This document shows positions 8,422 through 54,009 of a stretch of DNA of 64,000 nt, in pieces. The stretch spans positions 9,665 through 73,664 of the forward strand of contig JBAYLH010000002.1 of assembly GCA_041664165.1 (NCBI GenBank), written 5' to 3'. Positions within the stretch are counted from its first letter, which is position 1; each line of letters opens with the position of its first letter. The position numbers and the translations under genes are program-made. The notes below the pieces were generated by a model that did no database searches, was not told the DNA's origin, and worked only from the letters and a program-made list of their open reading frames with translations. This DNA comes from Candidatus Buchananbacteria bacterium. GTDB taxonomy: Bacteria; Patescibacteriota; Patescibacteriia; Buchananbacterales; UBA6539.

Positions 8422-8444
8422 TGAGCTAATTTTTTAAATTTTAT

Positions 8445-8480
8445 TTGACATAAACTGCAATATATGCTTTACTATCTTGT
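8445..8480 (+). promoter_or_regulatory. candidate promoter (TTGACA -35) for the GC-rich RNA+ORF module
   Basis: TTGACA at 8445 followed by AT-rich -10-like hexamers; immediately after mrdA stop. Confidence 0.3.
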
Positions 8481-8525
8481 TAGTTCTTTGACAGATTTTA
8501 GAGCAATAGTTACTTGCAAAAATAG

Positions 8526-8699
8526 TAGCCATAGCCAAAAGTTACCAATAGTTTTGTCATTCTGAGGGAGTCCATAATTATCTGACAGGAAGGACGACCG
8601 AAGAATCTCTAATATCCTTTGAATCCGGTCGCAATGAACTTGTCCAGAAGCGACCTTCGTTTGGGATAACAACCTTTGGTGTTTTCTGGCTATGGCTAC
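8526..8699 (+). ncRNA. candidate structured RNA closed by 16-bp long-range helix
   Basis: TAGCCATAGCCAAAAG (8526-8541) pairs with TTTTCTGGCTATGGCTA (8683-8699); internal GC-rich hairpins CGACCG...CGGTCG and GGTCGC...GCGACC; no ORF. Confidence 0.3.
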
Positions 8700-8761
8700 G
8701 CTGTGTAGTCCGCTGGCATAAACTCGAAATTGGCGAAAAACTCTTGAAAGGAGAACACGCC

Positions 8762-9394
8762 ATGAATAAAGATGGACTGTTAGATCCGCAGACATCGGCT
8801 TTTGGAGGACGTTTACTAACATGCCTTCCTGCCATGCCCGGAGGAGTGGCGCAAGACTGGTTTGATTTTCCGGAGGGATTGCAGGAGTATCTGGCCGGGC
8901 TTGCTACGTCGCCATTTGTCGTCAGGGTTGACCGTTTGGTCAAACCTGTCTACCCGGATTGGGTGAAAGAGGTTCTCCATCCGGAATTGGAGAACACAGG
9001 TCCTGACGAATTCAATCTCAAAACGGATGTCGCGCTGTGGCTCCATGACGGACAGAAGAATGGCGATGTAGTCAACTCCAAATTTGTCTATTATCACCTG
9101 CGAGACAACGGCATGCTTCCTACGTGCCTGAATCTCCAAGACGGCGAAGCGATTCGGGGAAGAGGCATTGCCGTTTTCCGGAAGTTTTTTAGAGATAAAG
9201 AAGTCTTTCTCTGGAAGGCGGTTGTGCAGGATTGTCATGGCTTCATCCGCGTCCCGCATCTCCGTGAGGTCAGATCTCAGGTTGTGGTCGAATGGCGCAG
9301 ACTTGGTGCCGGTTGTTTCGGCGATAACTATCCGGCGGCTCGCTTCACGCTACAAGTAAATATACCCTTTAGACATAAGGGCTTGATCGCTTGA
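8762..9394 (+). CDS. orphan hypothetical protein, compositionally foreign (GC-rich, CTG/CTC/GGA codons)
   Basis: AAAGGAG SD 7 nt before ATG 8762; 210 aa; no recognised domain; codon usage unlike neighbours. Confidence 0.6.
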   Translation: MNKDGLLDPQTSAFGGRLLTCLPAMPGGVAQDWFDFPEGLQEYLAGLATSPFVVRVDRLVKPVYPDWVKEVLHPELENTGPDEFNLKTDVALWLHDGQKNGDVVNSKFVYYHLRDNGMLPTCLNLQDGEAIRGRGIAVFRKFFRDKEVFLWKAVVQDCHGFIRVPHLREVRSQVVVEWRRLGAGCFGDNYPAARFTLQVNIPFRHKGLIA

Positions 9395-9435
9395 GGCGAC
9401 CTTGGACTTGCATCTCATCGACTCGCGTTGGTTTC

Positions 9436-9462
9436 ATAGACTGGCGCGGGTCTATTTTTTTT
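9436..9462 (+). terminator. rho-independent terminator candidate
   Basis: ATAGAC-tggcgcgg-GTCTAT hairpin followed by T8. Confidence 0.5.
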
Positions 9463-9548
9463 ATGCAATTGGTTAAATTACTTTGCTTTTTAGCCAAGCC
9501 ACAATAAACCCAATTATTTGGCTTTTGTGGATAAGTTAGGCCAAATAT

Positions 9549-9577
9549 TTGACATTTTGTAAATGGTCATTTATACT
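9549..9577 (+). promoter_or_regulatory. sigma70-type promoter for greA
   Basis: TTGACA-17 nt-TATACT consensus match. Confidence 0.55.
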
Positions 9578-9680
9578 AAGTTTTAGCTTTTAGCGCCGGC
9601 CGCTATTTTTTTAATATCATTATCGGCAGCGGCAAACAAACATTTTTTTAATTTTTAAATCAAAGTATAAATCAAAACTT

Positions 9681-10139: not shown

Positions 10140-10396
10140 AAATCGCTAAAACGCTTCAATTTGTCATTCCGCACCGGTCTATTAATGACAGGCTGATGCG
10201 GAATCCAGAAGTCTTGCCATTAAACTTGATGACTCTCGGTTGGGACTGGGGTAGCTTTATTCGTCGTTCATGGCTATAACGCAATTAATTTTGCGTTTTT
10301 TTCATAATTATTAATTTGATGGCAACCCGACTCAGTCGGCTTAAACGTAAAGTCGGGCGACCAATTTATTGCTCCCAGACCCTGGTTGCGCATAAG

Positions 10397-34481: not shown

Positions 34482-35057
34482 AACAGTGTTCTCCTTTTTG
34501 CACCCTTGTTATGGGTGCGGTTTGTGTTGCACGTCATTGCCCCAACCTAATTGGCAAGCAGAGTTAGCCTCCTTTCTTTTCTTTTCACTCTACTTGTTTA
34601 CAGAAAAAAGCGTACCAAATTGTTAGTACTCTTCCTCTGAGCTGCTTGTATTATAAACCATTTATTCAAAAAATCAAGGGGGGGCTGTGGGTATTTTTTT
34701 TGAGTTTATAAAAAGAGCCCTTGTTCATTGTCAGCGAGACTTTGATTGGGGGCTCCAGACTCTAACTCCATCACCTCGCTTTCTGGCCGTAAAAACGGCT
34801 CAAAACCCGTATTGCTACGGGAGATAATGGATCACCTCCCTTCCGGCGGTCAAAACTCTGAATCTTTTCATGACTCTACCCTCCTGCCTGAAAGTAGCAG
34901 GCCGCGTTAGAAGCTGTATTTATTGTAAAACGAAAAAAACGATAAATCAATATTTTTTTGTCATTTTGCACTGGTTTTTATTGACGACGGACTTGATGCA
35001 AAATCCAGGAGTCATTTTTGCCGCCAATGGCGACGTATAGCCATATTAAATTTCAAA

Positions 35058-37553: not shown

Positions 37554-38220
37554 GTTTTTGTTTAATAATTTTTTCAGCCGCTTGGTAGGCTTTGACTTTT
37601 TTCGACCAGGGAAAACGATAAAAGAATTTTGGCAGCCAGCTCGACATCGTGCCGCCGGCTTTAGCCGTGAATAAAAGTTCAGGAATAAAAACGCCGGTGT
37701 CTCCCCTTTCAAGCATTGTTAGCCATAAATCCCAATCCTGAAACCGCTTTAATTTTTCGTCAAAACCCGGGAAGCGTTCTTGGCGAATTAATGACGTGGT
37801 ATGGATATAAGGCATTTTTTTTAGTTTAGCGGCCGAAAAAGGGAAAAGTTTAAAAATTTTAGCGCCGAATCTAAATGATGAATAAGCGTACATCGCGCCG
37901 GGATTTTTTTTCAAAGCGTCAAACATTGTTGCCAGCATTTTCGGCTTCATGGTAATATCGGCATCGCAGAAAATGAGAAACGGCGATTTGGCGATTTTAG
38001 CGCCGTGGTTGCGAGCCGCGGCGGCGCCGAGGTTGGGTTGGTTAATAACGGTAATTTTATCCTGGTAATTTTTTAAAATTTCCAAGCTGGAGTCGGTTGA
38101 ACCGTCGTTGACGGCGATAATTTCAAAATTTTTCCAGGTTTGGTTAAAAATACTCTCCAGGCATTTTTCGAGAGTTTTTTTGGCGTTATAAATCGGAATG
38201 ACGATGCTGATTTCGGGCAC
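37540..38220 (-). CDS. glycosyltransferase family 2
   Basis: N-terminal GT-A motif ISIVIPIYNA...VNDGSTD. Confidence 0.75.
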   Translation of the reverse strand: MPEISIVIPIYNAKKTLEKCLESIFNQTWKNFEIIAVNDGSTDSSLEILKNYQDKITVINQPNLGAAAARNHGAKIAKSPFLIFCDADITMKPKMLATMFDALKKNPGAMYAYSSFRFGAKIFKLFPFSAAKLKKMPYIHTTSLIRQERFPGFDEKLKRFQDWDLWLTMLERGDTGVFIPELLFTAKAGGTMSSWLPKFFYRFPWSKKVKAYQAAEKIIKQKHDLS

Positions 38221-48042: not shown

Positions 48043-49173
48043 TTATTGCAGCTCCGTCAGGCTGGTATAATCCAGACAAGCTTTTTTTTCGGTTTGATCG
48101 GTTAAATTGGCGCAGACATTTTTGTCGCGGGCGGTAACGGCGACATTATGAATGCATTTATCGCGAGTGCCGGTCTTTTCCGATTTTTCGCAGACGGCGG
48201 CATCGCGAGTAACGTTGGCAACGCTATAAAGGCAGGAGTAATTATTTTCCGCCTCTTTGAGATAGGCGCAAGGTTCGGCGCTTTTTTTGGCCGTCGCAAT
48301 TGAAGTAAAGCAATAAGTTTTTTGGCCTTGGTCGGCAATTGACTGGCAAAGTCCGGTGTCTTGCTTGGCCATCGCCACTGATTGATAGCAGCTGTCCTTT
48401 TGGCCCTGGTTTTCTATTTGGGTGCAGCTATTTTCGTCATTGTGCTTAGTTCCGACTAAATAATAGCATTGCTGCCTTTGGCTTGAGTCCTGGATTTTGC
48501 CGCAAAGCAAATTGCCGCCGATTTCCGAGGCCACGTTGGAAAGGCAGACATCTTTTATTTTTTGGTCAGTAATCTGATCGCAGAGCTTTTCATCTTTTCG
48601 GCTGGTGGCTAGCGAAGTATAACAATTTTGCTGCATTTCTATTTTGTCGATTTGCCCGCAAAGAGCCGGGTCGTTTTTTTTGATGATTATATTGTTATAG
48701 CAATCGGTTTGATAATAAGTTTCCGTAATCTGATCGCAAAGCTTGATGTCGCCTTTGGCCTGGGCAATTTGCGAAACGCATTGGCCGGCCGTGGTTTTAT
48801 TGCTAATGCCGACGCAAAGCGATGCGTCCTGTTTTTTGACGGCTAAGCCGCTGAAACAAAGGTCTTTGTATTGGTCTTGATTAATCCGGTCGCATAAAGC
48901 CTGATTATCGCTGGCCACGGCCACTTTTGAAAAGCAATTATTTTTGGTTGATTCGTCTTTAATTTCATCGCAGAGTTTTTCATTTTTTGCCGCTTCGGTG
49001 ACGCCGGCTAAGCAGCGTTCCCGGCGGCCGACTTCATCCATTTTCCGGCAGATTTTTGGATTCTTTTTGGCGATGGCGGTATTCATTTCCGAATCTAAAA
49101 AATCAAAAATTCCGCAGCCGGTTAAAATCACGGCGAGGCCGAATATCAGAGTGACCAATGAAATTTTTTTCAT
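48043..49173 (-). CDS. lipoprotein with ~12 Cys-containing ~28-aa repeats
   Basis: Lipobox ILTGC; repeated ..C..I.D......CY..VA.......C modules. Confidence 0.5.
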   Translation of the reverse strand: MKKISLVTLIFGLAVILTGCGIFDFLDSEMNTAIAKKNPKICRKMDEVGRRERCLAGVTEAAKNEKLCDEIKDESTKNNCFSKVAVASDNQALCDRINQDQYKDLCFSGLAVKKQDASLCVGISNKTTAGQCVSQIAQAKGDIKLCDQITETYYQTDCYNNIIIKKNDPALCGQIDKIEMQQNCYTSLATSRKDEKLCDQITDQKIKDVCLSNVASEIGGNLLCGKIQDSSQRQQCYYLVGTKHNDENSCTQIENQGQKDSCYQSVAMAKQDTGLCQSIADQGQKTYCFTSIATAKKSAEPCAYLKEAENNYSCLYSVANVTRDAAVCEKSEKTGTRDKCIHNVAVTARDKNVCANLTDQTEKKACLDYTSLTELQ

Positions 49174-49208: not shown

Positions 49209-49643
49209 TTAAGTCGGGGTAATTGACTCAAGCCACTTTGTCGCTTTTTCTTTAGTTCCGGTTGGATTTTTTAACGGTTCGCTGAATAAAGTTTTGCCGA
49301 TAATTTGATTGCCCGCCAGGGCGTTTTCCAGGCTGGCCAAAGTTTTTGCCGGTAAGTCTTCGTGGCAGACAAATAAAGCCAGCTTTTTATTTTCCAATTT
49401 GGCTTGGTTTAAAAAGGTTCTGATCGCCGGGGCAAAATTAAATCCCCAAACCGGCGTGCCTAAAATTATTAAATCATAGTCGGCCAGGTCTTTGGTCAGA
49501 GGTAAAGGCTTCGGCCGACTTTTTGAGCCCTGTCCCCTTTCCGGCTTTAATTCTAAAATATCCGCTCCGGATTTTTGAGCGATTTGCTCGGCAATAAATC
49601 TCGTGTTGCCGGTTAAAGAATAATATATAACAAGGGTTTTCAT
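49209..49643 (-). CDS. flavodoxin-like fold protein (paralog of 46718-47197)
   Basis: MKTLVIYYSLTGNTRF; longer upstream starts are possible. Confidence 0.65.
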   Translation of the reverse strand: MKTLVIYYSLTGNTRFIAEQIAQKSGADILELKPERGQGSKSRPKPLPLTKDLADYDLIILGTPVWGFNFAPAIRTFLNQAKLENKKLALFVCHEDLPAKTLASLENALAGNQIIGKTLFSEPLKNPTGTKEKATKWLESITPT

Positions 49644-49656
49644 ATAGTTTTTCATC

Positions 49657-49819
49657 GTCATTTCGACCGAAGTGAGAAATCCCTTATACATCGATTGACC
49701 CTTTGTCATTCCGAACGAAGTGAATAATCCCTTATACTCGGATTAACCGTCTAACATTTTAAAAGGGATTTCTCACCCCGCCTCTCGGATACGCCTGAAG
49801 CGGGGTTCAAAATGACAAA
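49657..49819. mobile_element. MITE-like repeat copy 1 (TIR TTGTCATTTCGA-type)
   Basis: ~150 nt nearly identical to 50470-50618; internal 33-nt subrepeats GTCATTYCGAMCGAAGTGARAAATCCCTTATAC; ends ...GTTCAAAATGACAAA. Confidence 0.55.
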
Positions 49820-49820
49820 A

Positions 49821-50105
49821 TCAGTTTGGTTTAAACCTCTCAACGTAAACTAGCCGCCACCAAACTCGACCCAAAAGAAAGCCGCCGATAGCGCCAAATA
49901 GCCAAAGCCCGATTTGGATTATCGGTAAAAGCGCACAGCCATGATAAAAAGTAACGGCTATCCCTTGTTTTTCTGTCCAGCCCAAATAGTTGATTTCAAT
50001 TAAAGCGTGGATAATAAAGCTTAGCAGGATGCCTAAAATTGTAGCAGCAATAAGATAAACCGCATGTTTAAATTTGGTTGGATTTTTTGGTGATCCAAAA
50101 AACAT
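49821..50105 (-). CDS. small membrane protein
   Basis: 94 aa, 2-3 TM; between MITE copies. Confidence 0.4.
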   Translation of the reverse strand: MFFGSPKNPTKFKHAVYLIAATILGILLSFIIHALIEINYLGWTEKQGIAVTFYHGCALLPIIQIGLWLFGAIGGFLLGRVWWRLVYVERFKPN

Positions 50106-50119
50106 ATTATTGCTAAAAT

Positions 50120-50416
50120 TTAAAATAATTCTTCATAGAGGTCTTTCCAGTGAGGATTGATTGTTTTAATTAAGTTTTGTTTTTTCTCTCGCCGCCACTT
50201 CTTTATTTCCTTTTCCCTTTCGATGGCGTCATAGACATAATCATAATTTTCGTAATAAACCAATTTGTTGCAGGAGTATTTTTTGGTGAAACCTTTGATT
50301 TCCCCTTGTTTATGTTCATTAACTCGGCGCAACAAATCATTAGTCATGCCAATATACAAAGTGCCGCTTGGGCTAGCCATGATGTAAATATAAAAATTGT
50401 ATTCTCTTTTTGGCAT
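50120..50416 (-). CDS. GIY-YIG nuclease family protein
   Basis: YIYIMASPSGTLYIGMTNDLLRRVNEH GIY-YIG core. Confidence 0.85.
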   Translation of the reverse strand: MPKREYNFYIYIMASPSGTLYIGMTNDLLRRVNEHKQGEIKGFTKKYSCNKLVYYENYDYVYDAIEREKEIKKWRREKKQNLIKTINPHWKDLYEELF

Positions 50417-50434
50417 AGACTTTCTTTTTTTAGT

Positions 50435-50618
50435 TTGTCATTTCGACCGACCTGTCTATTAGAGGAAAGGAGGGAGAAATCCCTTATACATCGACTGACC
50501 TTTTGTCATTCCGAACAGAGTGAAAAATCCCTTATACTCGGATTAACCGTCTAACATTTTAAAAGGGATTTCTCACCCCGCCTCTCGGATACGCCTGAAG
50601 CGGGGTTCGAAATGACAA
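50435..50618. mobile_element. MITE-like repeat copy 2 with 12-bp terminal inverted repeats
   Basis: TTGTCATTTCGAcc ... ggTTCGAAATGACAA; a third partial GTCATTCCGACC...AATCCCTTATACTC copy lies at ~50646-50690. Confidence 0.55.
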
Positions 50619-50691
50619 AGATAGACCCCTCGTTATTTTTCGTCATTCCGACCGCCGGGAGGAATCCCTTATACTCTGATTGATGAAAGCA

Positions 50692-51330: not shown

Positions 51331-51933
51331 CTATTCTAGTAGTTTGTTTCTCAGAATCTCTTCTCTTTTTTCTAATTCATCATAAAAAGGCTTAACATTT
51401 TCTTCTGAGTGGCCAATTTTGTGTGCTATTTCACCGGTAATACCTTTTTTTTCAACTCTATTCCAAACCTCAACAAATTCTACGAGCTTGGCGTAGTGTT
51501 CTCTAGTCTCAGGTTCAGCAAGCCAATAATTATTTCGAAAAATTTTTAGCATTTGATTATAAAGTGGTAGGAATTCTTCTATTAATTGTTTATTATTGTA
51601 GTCAATCTCGTAATCAACAGATTTAATGTCTGGGAATTGACCTGCGTCGCATTTTTTTTCCCATATCTTAGTACCAACTCTTTCAATTTTTACTCTTACT
51701 TCACTTTTTGTACGGATTTCTTTTCGGATACCCAGAAGTGGTGAGTAGAATTTGTTGAGTTGTTCCTCAGTTACATTGTGTTTCTTTTGTGCTTTGTATA
51801 ATTTAATACCATAAGTTACGCCTAAGTAGCCAAATAATGCTGGTGCAATAATGGCAACTATATCTTTTATGAAGGATAAGGTAGTAAAATTTGGTATTTG
51901 AGACGGGTTATGCATAGGGTTATAAAATTTCAC
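51331..51933 (-). CDS. membrane-anchored hypothetical protein in AT-rich R-M island
   Basis: One N-terminal TM, charged helical cytoplasmic domain; AT-rich codon usage matching R-M genes. Confidence 0.45.
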   Translation of the reverse strand: MKFYNPMHNPSQIPNFTTLSFIKDIVAIIAPALFGYLGVTYGIKLYKAQKKHNVTEEQLNKFYSPLLGIRKEIRTKSEVRVKIERVGTKIWEKKCDAGQFPDIKSVDYEIDYNNKQLIEEFLPLYNQMLKIFRNNYWLAEPETREHYAKLVEFVEVWNRVEKKGITGEIAHKIGHSEENVKPFYDELEKREEILRNKLLE

Positions 51934-51989
51934 ACAACTTATTTTATCCGAACCAGCTAATTATCTATTCTAAATTCTCGCAATATTAT

Positions 51990-53240
51990 TTATGTCGCGA
52001 ACGCAAATAGCTGTTGTTGCAGGCGTGTAGACTCTTCAATTTCTTCCTTAGCTTCGCCATTTAGCATTTTAATTACCATATCACCAATATAATATCCAAG
52101 ATTTACAGGCACGGCATTTCCTATTTGCTTGTATTGTTGGGAAACGGATCCTGAAAATTTCCAATTATCTGGGAATGTCTGAATTCGTGCATATTCGCGT
52201 ACTGTTAAGGGGCGCGTTTCTTCCGGATGACAACGCTCAGTCTGTTTTTGGGCTGGGCTGCAAGTTAATGTTAAAGATGGTTCGTCCCATGATAATCGTC
52301 TTGCCATGCCAGTCTTGCCGCCACCCATAAAATAGCTAGCCCCCATGTACTCTTTTTGAAGATTTTCTGGGAGATCTCTCCAATATCCACCCGGAGGAAT
52401 TAAGTCCAATATTTCTTTCTTTTTTTCCGGGTATTGCTGCCCTTCTGATTTTGGGCATTTTAAAAGTGCTTCGCGTATGGGGATTATGTAGTCTTTTTCT
52501 TTGGGGAATGAAATAGGGATATCTAGGTCTTTTCTAACGCCGATAATTATTAAGCGTTCTCTTTTTTGCGGGATATCTAAATATTGGGATCGTAAAATTT
52601 TGTATTTGACCCTATATCCGAGTTCCTCTAATACGCTAATCATCGTTTTAATCGTTTTTCCGTTATTATGATTCAACAAGCCCTTAACATTTTCTCCGAT
52701 TGCAATTTTTGGCTTAACTTCCTTGACACATCTCGCAAATTCAAAAAATAAAGTTCCCCTTATATCTTCAAACCCCATTTTATTCCCAGCATAAGAAAAA
52801 GCTTGACAAGGAAAACCACCTTGTACTATATCTGCTTGTCCCTTAAAGAATTTAAGTTTCCCAACATCACCTTCAACCACGTTCCAGTCTGGTTTATTCG
52901 TTCGAAGCGTTTCGCAGGCATGCTTATCATATTCATTCAGTAGAATATGTTTAATTCCCGCATTTTCCATTCCAAGGGCAGTACCACCAGCGCCGGCAAA
53001 TAGCTCAATCGCCGTATACGGAGACATTTTATTATTTTTTAGAATTTTGAATTTGTTTTTTTTATCGCCGCTTGTTCTGCTTTGAATCCTTTCGATTTCA
53101 TCTAGGCAAAACATACGATCATTTCTTTCGTTTCGAAAAGCTTTTATCAATCCTTTTTTATCCCATCTCCTAATAGTATCTATAGAAGTGCCTAATTTTA
53201 TAGCCACTTCGCCAGCGGTAAAAAATTTGTCATTTTTCAT
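51990..53240 (-). CDS. dcm: DNA (cytosine-5)-methyltransferase with N-terminal MerR-like HTH
   Basis: Motif I ELFAGAGG, motif IV GFPCQAFS, ENV, motif X QIGNAVPV; N-terminal HTH (FTAGEVAIKLGTSIDTIRRWDKKG). Confidence 0.9.
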   Translation of the reverse strand: MKNDKFFTAGEVAIKLGTSIDTIRRWDKKGLIKAFRNERNDRMFCLDEIERIQSRTSGDKKNKFKILKNNKMSPYTAIELFAGAGGTALGMENAGIKHILLNEYDKHACETLRTNKPDWNVVEGDVGKLKFFKGQADIVQGGFPCQAFSYAGNKMGFEDIRGTLFFEFARCVKEVKPKIAIGENVKGLLNHNNGKTIKTMISVLEELGYRVKYKILRSQYLDIPQKRERLIIIGVRKDLDIPISFPKEKDYIIPIREALLKCPKSEGQQYPEKKKEILDLIPPGGYWRDLPENLQKEYMGASYFMGGGKTGMARRLSWDEPSLTLTCSPAQKQTERCHPEETRPLTVREYARIQTFPDNWKFSGSVSQQYKQIGNAVPVNLGYYIGDMVIKMLNGEAKEEIEESTRLQQQLFAFAT

Positions 53241-53301
53241 AAAAAATGATAGGTAATTAATCTATCATAATTATATCATATAACCATTGCCTAGGCAAAG
53301 G

Positions 53302-54009
53302 TTATTTTGTGGCAAAAGCCAATTTAAATAGCTCAAAATACTTTTGAGCTTCTTTTTTGCTTAATTTAAACTTATATTTATCTACCAGAATATGGGATAG
53401 TGCCTCGAATAGCTCTTGCAGGGCGTGCTTTCGACCAGTAGCTAGAGCATAAAAGCTGATGCCGTCAACCACCCGGATATTTTTAACATTCGGCCGTCGT
53501 TTTTTAGTTTTATTATCCGGTGGCGTAAAAGGTTTATCATACATATTCTTTCCCTGTGGTATGATTTCCACATAGTATCCGATAAAATCATTATATTTTT
53601 CGGTTTTAAGCTTAGATTTTATGGCATCATAGATTTCAACCTTATGATTGCCCTTTGTCGTATTAAATTTATTTTTTACTTCAGCAATAATTTTCATACT
53701 ATCGCTTGCAACATCCAACCCTCCGCCCGCGCCAAGGTTTTTCCAGCCAGGAATAGCCCCTAAAATTTCTTGATGAAAATCGCCGATAGCATTTTGCATT
53801 GTTTTTTGCGATTGCCTGGCTTTTTCTTGTTCAATCCATTCTTTGTAGGTTATAGCATGTGTTACGCCATGAAATAAGGCAGAAAAAGGGTCAATAACAT
53901 TTTTATGCAGATTATTGCCTGCTTCATGCTCCGCTGTTTCTATTATTTTAACCACCCTGCCAACGGCAAAAATTAGATTTTTATCGGATATAAATTTTAA
54001 GTAAGACAT
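53302..54009 (-). CDS. candidate Type II restriction endonuclease (PD-(D/E)xK)
   Basis: Adjacent to and co-oriented with m5C MTase; GLDVAS...IAEVKNK resembles PD-(D/E)xK core. Confidence 0.5.
   Translation of the reverse strand: MSYLKFISDKNLIFAVGRVVKIIETAEHEAGNNLHKNVIDPFSALFHGVTHAITYKEWIEQEKARQSQKTMQNAIGDFHQEILGAIPGWKNLGAGGGLDVASDSMKIIAEVKNKFNTTKGNHKVEIYDAIKSKLKTEKYNDFIGYYVEIIPQGKNMYDKPFTPPDNKTKKRRPNVKNIRVVDGISFYALATGRKHALQELFEALSHILVDKYKFKLSKKEAQKYFELFKLAFATK

Follow-up and report, generated by a model that had tools for sequence, protein, structure and literature searches.

A probable Ssn/SRM module, a GIY-YIG nuclease gene between clusters of hairpin motifs, in a Candidatus Buchananbacteria contig

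The closest described system is that of the nuclease SsnA and its recognition hairpin in Neisseria meningitidis, reported together with the Ssn family at large (Chenal et al., Nat Commun 2025; PMC11893778). SsnA has 94 aa and a GIY-YIG domain as its only one (CDD cd10448). Its target, the Neisseria Transformation Sequence (NTS; CGTCATTCCCGCGMAVGCGGGAATCYRG), is a directional hairpin, of which there are hundreds of copies, reported to be intergenic (PMC11893778). The protein binds the NTS as single-stranded DNA (ssDNA) only and on one strand only, and cuts a few nt upstream of it; cutting requires the GTC that precedes the palindrome and binding the C that follows it, residues Y6, Y17 and E64 are essential as judged by mutants, and RNA is not bound (PMC11893778). 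In Neisseria, SsnA restricts incoming transforming ssDNA carrying the motif. With homologues accepted at E < 1e-10, at least one Ssn-related motif (SRM) was found near 71% of Ssn homologues across phyla, and motifs on both sides in 42%; the enzymes of N. elongata, of N. wadsworthii and of W. pipientis cut their own motifs, and the authors likened NTS-ssnA-NTS to an insertion sequence (IS), movement of which was not shown (PMC11893778). Here we describe a locus in a 64-kb stretch of Candidatus Buchananbacteria DNA (64,000 nt of contig JBAYLH010000002.1; the window, hereafter) that is very probably an Ssn/SRM module, i.e. an Ssn-family GIY-YIG nuclease gene with clusters of its cognate recognition hairpins. 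At this locus two repeat copies of ~165-185 nt, and a half copy besides, bracket the GIY-YIG gene and a gene for a small membrane protein; an earlier note on this DNA had taken the repeats for a miniature inverted-repeat transposable element (MITE).

The window nuclease is a 98-aa protein that carries PF01541 alone and no other domain, and like SsnA it belongs to the single-domain GIY-YIG proteins of ~94-98 aa. A tblastn search with the window protein against PLSDB (a 7.3-Gb database) yielded a gonococcal reference at E 1e-8. The N. gonorrhoeae SsnA orthologue (L032:1489-1770) is a 94-aa open reading frame (ORF) with a canonical NTS on both sides, one copy of which begins 3 nt past the ssnA stop codon. 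Pairwise BLASTP of the window nuclease and this 94-aa orthologue gave 43% identity over 90 aa (E 2e-26), with Y6, Y17 and E64 of SsnA aligned to Y11, Y21 and E68 of the window protein, all three catalytic residues being kept. The record that holds the orthologue, NZ_CP119140.1 (L032), and NZ_CP119142.1 are filed in PLSDB as plasmids and are really 2.17-Mb N. gonorrhoeae chromosomes, almost unannotated.

The likeness to SsnA/NTS extends to the DNA around the gene. Directional hairpins lie on both sides of the window gene, with a core, GTC-ATTCC...GGAAT-C, that matches the Neisseria NTS or Ssn-related motif (CGTCATTCCCGCG..CGCGGGAATCYRG) of PMC11893778. As the earlier note had described, the two bracketing copies are nearly identical: a direct repeat of 149 nt (49671-49819 and 50471-50619, 95% identical, 800 nt apart) extends leftwards to 49654/50434 across a 22-nt indel, and a half copy lies at 50632-50683 (79% identical). 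These repeats resolve into one hairpin unit of 25-50 nt that is used seven times at the locus, four times upstream of the ssn gene and three times downstream, five of the units being on the + strand and the other two on the - strand (Table 1). Each unit is laid out as T-GTC, a stem of 5-8 nt (ATTYC), GA, an inner part, GA, the GRAAT stem and a closing C; the inner part is variable, being a loop or an extra hairpin of 10-45 nt, and in the locus units the closing C is followed by CCTT(ATAC). Whereas 0.16 occurrences of the head GTCATTYCGA would be expected in the window, 8 were counted, six of them at the locus. The other two, matches to GTCATTCCGA at 38193 and 39886, were dismissed as chance because they lie within ORFs and lack a partner arm.

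Units of opposite strand are combined into inverted doublets of ~120 nt, in each of which one - unit faces one + unit about 25-45 nt away, at this locus about 40 nt, and each supposed MITE copy is such a doublet joined by a further tandem unit of the + strand. Inverted ends, TTTGTCATTTCGA / TCGAAATGACAAA, do exist, perfect over 13 nt in copy 2 and imperfect in copy 1 (15 nt, 87%), but they are the heads of two opposed units and not the 12-bp terminal inverted repeats (TIRs) for which they had been taken. The internal palindrome GTGAGAAATCCC...GGGATTTCTCAC is present as claimed and consists of the two 3' stems of opposed units. The claim of internal 33-nt tandem subrepeats failed: Tandem Repeats Finder reported nothing, and the copies instead contain two head units, 67-71% alike, with a spacing of 48 nt in copy 1 and of 68 nt in copy 2. 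The two - strand units each hold a GC-rich 30-nt inner hairpin. Folded as ssDNA, the doublets reached -22 to -29.5 kcal/mol with z of -5 to -7; doublet 2 gave -25.3 kcal/mol (z -5.5) for its + strand and -29.5 kcal/mol (z -7.2) for its - strand.

The association between gene and hairpin recurs well beyond the window. A metagenome scan returned 80 nuclease homologues with 51-86% identity to the window protein, and their surroundings were searched with a detector that required only GTC + WYNNN and, after an inner part, the complementary 5-mer + C; a unit was counted as near when within 400 nt of the gene. By this measure a unit lay upstream of the homologue in 61/77 cases (79%), downstream in 53/68 (78%) and on both sides in 42/65 (65%), which answers the question raised in the earlier note of whether other GIY-YIG genes are similarly flanked. 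Units numbered 4.26 per kb inside this 400-nt range and 0.48 per kb beyond it, and at these loci the units stood in both orientations relative to the adjacent genes. The stems covary strongly: a matching 3' stem (complementary 5-mer + C) was found for 223 of 423 GTCAY heads near these genes, whereas permuted sets gave 58.5 +/- 6 with a maximum of 78 in 1000, and in the table of 5' against 3' stems the diagonal held 119/131 for ATTTC, 53/70 for ATTCC, 17/22 for ATCTC and 12/17 for ATGTC. Positions that the detector did not impose were conserved as well, namely the T before GTC (88%), the GA after the 5' stem (89% and 81%) and the GA before the 3' stem (84% and 87%); CCTT after the closing C was conserved in the close clade only. 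The complete doublet-ssn-doublet layout recurred at the homologue locus L035 (80% identity), at L020 and L030, and on a Planktothrix plasmid (61% identity). Outside its flanking doublets, L035 has a second hairpin subtype at 1660-1705 and 2470-2610 (GTCATCCTGAAC..AGGATC, stem ATCCT/AGGAT); therefore more than one SRM subfamily can coexist at one locus.

Table 1. Hairpin units and genes at the ssn locus and elsewhere in the 64-kb window.
Feature	Position	Strand	Remarks
ssn-family gene, 98-aa single-domain GIY-YIG nuclease	50120..50416	-	Pfam PF01541 at residues 8-81, E 1.9e-16
U1, SRM-like (GTCATTTCGACCGAAGTGAGAAATC)	49657..49681	+	14 nt from flavodoxin start codon 49643
Inverted SRM doublet 1	49702..49819	both	U2 and - unit; 95% identical to doublet 2
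U2	49705-49729	+	part of doublet 1
Minus-strand unit of doublet 1	49816->49767	-	stem ATTTT/GAAAT, one mismatch
U3, SRM-like	50437..50481	+	22-nt inner insert; ends 21 nt from ssn start codon
Inverted SRM doublet 2	50502..50619	both	+ unit U4 with - unit 50616->50567
U4	50505-50529	+	imperfect stem ATTCC/AAAAT
Minus-strand unit of doublet 2	50616->50567	-	GC-rich inner hairpin
U5, single SRM-like hairpin (GTCATTCCGACCGCCGGGAGGAATC)	50642..50666	+	just past hydrolase stop codon
Single SRM-like hairpin (GTCATTCTGA..GAAGAATC)	8556..8607	+	intergenic, ATTCT/AGAAT type
Single SRM-like hairpin (GTCATTCCGCA..TGCGGAATC-CAG)	10163..10205	+	greA-lysS spacer; ssDNA fold -9.5 kcal/mol, z -3.0
Single SRM-like hairpin, 10163 subtype	34960..35005	+	compensated stem, intergenic; missed by the earlier note
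PF20603 hydrolase gene	51177-50692	-	upstream of ssn
94-aa small membrane protein gene	49821..50105	-	between ssn and downstream repeat cluster
Flavodoxin gene	49209-49643	-	start codon at 49643
200-aa protein gene	51331-51933	-	no Pfam or PADLOC match
C-5 cytosine methyltransferase gene, N-terminal MerR-type helix-turn-helix	51990-53240	-	
Eco47II-family restriction endonuclease gene	53302-54009	-	

Three further units, dispersed in the window, share the layout of GTC and stem followed by stem and C with the units of the locus. Two of them had been suspected as related hairpins near 8557 and 10170 and proved to be real relatives. The 8556 unit is of a type that also flanks the Planktothrix ssn homologue, and the 3' end of the 10163 unit matches the NTS tail GGAATCYRG. 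The third, at 34960, shows a compensating stem change, ATTTTGCA/TGCAAAAT in place of the ATTCCGCA/TGCGGAAT of the 10163 unit. The 22-nt insert of U3 (50447-50468, CCTGTCTATTAGAGG...) is absent from U1, and GTCTATTA is common to this insert and to the inner part of the 10163 unit (CCGGTCTATTAATGACAGG, 10174-10193), in the same position; long-loop and short-loop units may interconvert. The 8556-8607 hairpin lies ~135 nt from the left edge of a 1.26-kb gap (8422-9680) between a penicillin-binding protein gene and greA, called an 'RNA+protein island' in the earlier note, which contains a 216-aa ORF without Pfam match (8744-9394) and about 300 nt without ORF, and in which Rfam found nothing even at E<=1.

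Dispersal of the family extends to other genomes, as had been proposed. A scan for GTCATTYCGA-N(5-32)-AATCCCTTATAC, with one genome per species, yielded 31 loci, mostly in Patescibacteria and a few labelled Chloroflexota, Calditrichia, Clostridia or Gammaproteobacteria. An inverted partner unit, i.e. a doublet, was present in 18 of the 31, the others being solo units, and a nuclease homologue was found within the 8-kb locus fetched in only 3/31, directly adjacent in 2; the family is therefore dispersed, with the gene as its rarer companion. One of the loci with the full layout, L020 (CAZHUO010000005.1), is titled 'uncultured Gammaproteobacteria bacterium', but its label is probably wrong, judging by sequence, because those close relatives of its MraY that carry a name (75-84% identity) bear the labels Patescibacteria or Candidatus Buchananbacteria; the closest ones (85-88%) are unnamed. 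Other matches of the scan in metagenome-assembled genomes labelled Gammaproteobacteria may be mislabelled as well.

Against the Neisseria system, the window differs in its host, a Patescibacteria-type genome, in stems that are AT-richer with a conserved GA...GA step and a 3' extension CCTT(ATAC), in the 20-45-nt inner hairpin carried by many units, in the habitual pairing of units as ~120-nt inverted doublets, and in low copy number, with 7 units at the locus and 3 elsewhere in the 64 kb; alike in both are the intergenic position of the repeats, which holds for all hairpin units of the window, and their additional dispersal. The Ssn/SRM system being already known, this is an example from the candidate phyla radiation and not a new element type; its motif is a variant specific to the clade, with units habitually paired as doublets, and escapes the search pattern that was published. 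That pattern, the degenerate string HGTCWYN(0-2)YYVSBRHN(0-5)WNVSBRGN(0-2)RNCYNB, was built from GC-rich short-loop examples, with GC-type stem positions and a loop of <=5 nt. The window units are accordingly SRM-like by architecture and association and not by the published pattern, because their GA/GA-step stems are AT-richer or their inner segments exceed the N(0-5) loop; the NTS pattern as published likewise has zero matches in the window.

What the sequences show is the family of the gene, the architecture of the motif, covarying stems, the link between gene and motif, and the dispersal of the units. Several observations weigh against the Ssn/SRM assignment. The published SRM string has 0 matches on either strand of the window (0.1 in shuffles). 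NCBIfam gives no specific model for the window nuclease. Its nearest solved structures are UPF0213 proteins, at E 5e-7; these small GIY-YIG proteins of the UPF0213/YhbQ type (PDB 1zg2, 1ywl) resemble it in fold family and size but are distant (E 5e-7 and 1e-5) and are not reported with SRMs. Folded alone as ssDNA, the short units have little stability (-2 to -3.4 kcal/mol, z about 0), and the basal stems of two units, U2 and U4, are broken. Finally, the activity of the window protein and of its Patescibacteria homologues is predicted from homology.

By homology to the tested Neisseria and Wolbachia enzymes, we infer binding, cleavage and a biological role for the window protein as follows. When DNA turns single-stranded during uptake, replication or repair, the protein would bind the folded SRM, on the GTC-bearing strand only, and would cut a few nt 5' of it; it would be inactive on double-stranded DNA and RNA. 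In this Patescibacteria-type genome the protein may, like its Neisseria counterpart, restrict ssDNA that enters the cell, or the gene with its repeats may be a selfish unit.

A classical MITE, i.e. a non-autonomous TIR transposon moved by a transposase elsewhere and lying beside the GIY-YIG gene by chance, would account for the perfect 13-nt inverted ends of copy 2, for two near-identical copies of about 120-185 nt and for a family dispersed in other genomes, and MITEs such as the Correia element of Neisseria are likewise small and intergenic, with inverted ends and multiple copies. However, no target-site duplication was found at either copy, the flanks sharing only a trivial ATC at copy 1. 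The inverted ends, unlike those of Correia-type elements, are heads of independent hairpin units that also occur singly and in tandem; a parent IS is not known, inspection of the window and of the DNA near the repeats at 111 related loci showed no matching transposase, and the repeats go together specifically with genes of the Ssn type, in many phyla (80 metagenomic loci; PMC11893778). The repeats are better explained as Ssn-related motifs than as MITEs, and we give the transposon explanation very little credence. A simple local duplication was rejected, given the dispersal in other genomes and the like layout around other homologues. If the hairpins were instead RNA or cis-regulatory elements, serving as promoters, terminators, attenuators or stem-loops that stabilise mRNA (as has been proposed for REP/BIME), and did not act at the DNA level, this would agree with their filling of every intergenic gap of the minus-strand gene run, with ends 14-21 nt from two start codons, and with the stable folding of the doublets; stem covariation would suit RNA too. 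The edge of copy 2 indeed lies 17-18 nt from the GIY-YIG start codon at 50416, as the earlier note had observed, but the promoter role proposed for it found no support: promoter-like or terminator-like sites were not in excess over shuffles (3 promoter-like sites versus 4.2 expected). No T-run follows the GC hairpin. Rfam gave 0 matches for the whole window at gathering thresholds and only chance ones (small nucleolar RNA, microRNA) for the locus at E<=10, indicating that no known RNA family is present at the locus. Since the units stand in both orientations relative to adjacent genes and the tested SsnA does not bind RNA (PMC11893778), we regard a purely regulatory nature as improbable, although the hairpins may have a side effect on transcription.

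A further explanation adds to the Ssn/SRM assignment and does not exclude it. SRM-ssn-SRM would be a selfish mobile unit, with solo and doublet hairpins as its non-autonomous derivatives, like RAYT/REP-REPIN or IS; Ssn would cut an SRM exposed as ssDNA, and repair would copy gene and repeats from a donor copy. We consider this possible, though not likely. RAYT (TnpA_REP) systems with their REP, REPIN or BIME repeats are alike in having a nuclease gene flanked by short imperfect palindromes, which are also dispersed singly and as inverted doublets, and in hairpin recognition in ssDNA; they differ in that the window enzyme is a hydrolytic GIY-YIG nuclease and not an HUH/Y1 transposase, and the repeat sequences are unrelated. 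In IS200/IS605, too, ssDNA hairpins end a small gene-bearing unit and cleavage beside the hairpin is strand-specific, but the window locus has no Y1 transposase, TnpB or evidence of excision/integration chemistry. The idea of an IS-like unit is raised by the authors of PMC11893778 themselves. Here, the two doublets beside the gene repeat each other in direct orientation with 95% identity, and doublets are dispersed away from ssn, as the counts for the 31 genomic loci indicate. Closely related ssn genes (76-86% aa identity) with doublets occur in unrelated contexts, namely hydrolase/flavodoxin in the window, mraY/murD in L020 and cysS/dus in L030, L038 and L039, and flanking genes were shared with the window by 0/80 metagenomic loci (tblastx of the window flanks). 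Among relatives of the L020 MraY, moreover, the mraY/murD junction forms a series of filled, remnant and empty states: the spacer is 591 nt in L020 and holds doublet and gene; in L119 (MraY 88% identical) it is 121 nt, with an L020-like junction start and a GTCATTTC head remnant and no gene; in L121 (84% identical) it is 7 nt. As read from these sequences, the series reflects gain at one site and probably decay there.

On the other hand, presence and absence among relatives that are 84-88% identical could be ordinary gain and loss or recombination, and neither a target-site duplication nor defined ends were found at either window copy or at the L020 junction. No empty site for the window locus was found among hydrolase homologues, because those homologues (86% identity) have entirely different neighbours. 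To our knowledge a hydrolytic GIY-YIG nuclease has no strand-transfer activity, and mobility would therefore depend on host repair. The doublet-ssn-doublet arrangement might even be an element that moves autonomously by a mechanism of a new type, in which a GIY-YIG ssDNA nuclease targets its own hairpins, repair-mediated copying spreads the unit, and solo and doublet hairpins are REPIN-like non-autonomous progeny in streamlined Patescibacteria genomes; we think this speculative and unlikely. If it were true, the mraY/murD series would record one insertion and its decay.

All genes around the Ssn/SRM locus are on the minus strand and are transcribed in the order hydrolase, GIY-YIG nuclease, membrane protein, flavodoxin. 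The 94-aa membrane protein had no match in Pfam, NCBIfam or PADLOC. It belongs to a family that is real but small (134 cluster representatives when the cutoff is E<=1e-3, 45 when it is E<=1e-10). None of the 80 metagenomic and 31 genomic loci that were examined contains the gene, and in L035 ssn is followed straight away by its downstream doublet with no membrane gene between. The protein was rejected as a partner of ssn because it is missing from the other ssn loci examined; the gene is probably an ordinary neighbour or passenger and not a component of the system. None of the PADLOC defence-system models matched the window nuclease, and there are no tRNAs in the window.

Immediately upstream of the hydrolase gene, three minus-strand genes (51331-54009) include two of a type II restriction-modification (R-M) system, and by virtue of this methyltransferase and Eco47II-family endonuclease the ssn locus borders such a system. 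The Planktothrix ssn homologue (L033) is likewise flanked, by an MmeI-type R-M gene on one side and DISARM drmA on the other. The PF20603 hydrolase keeps 79-87% identity over the best 119 of its non-identical homologues, of 7,567 in all at E<=1e-20, some of which are labelled Patescibacteria, Elusimicrobia, Planctomycetes or Bipolaricaulota, and its neighbours are wholly different in three contigs inspected; for a gene of its kind this is either unusually high conservation or horizontal spread. The window also encodes a 376-aa predicted lipoprotein (48043-49173, minus strand) without Pfam match, with a signal peptide ending in LTGC and many short cysteine-containing repeats of similar spacing.

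Together, a vague annotation of a MITE plus a nuclease is replaced by a specific and testable one, an Ssn-type ssDNA endonuclease with its recognition hairpins. The published pattern misses this branch of the family, with its GA-step stem, long inner hairpins and inverted doublets, and surveys that rely on it will therefore under-count Ssn/SRM pairs. For the uses in ssDNA cutting that have been proposed for the Ssn family, this clade is a source of new enzyme/site pairs, and the presence/absence series at a conserved operon junction provides comparative data on the mobility of SRM-ssn-SRM.

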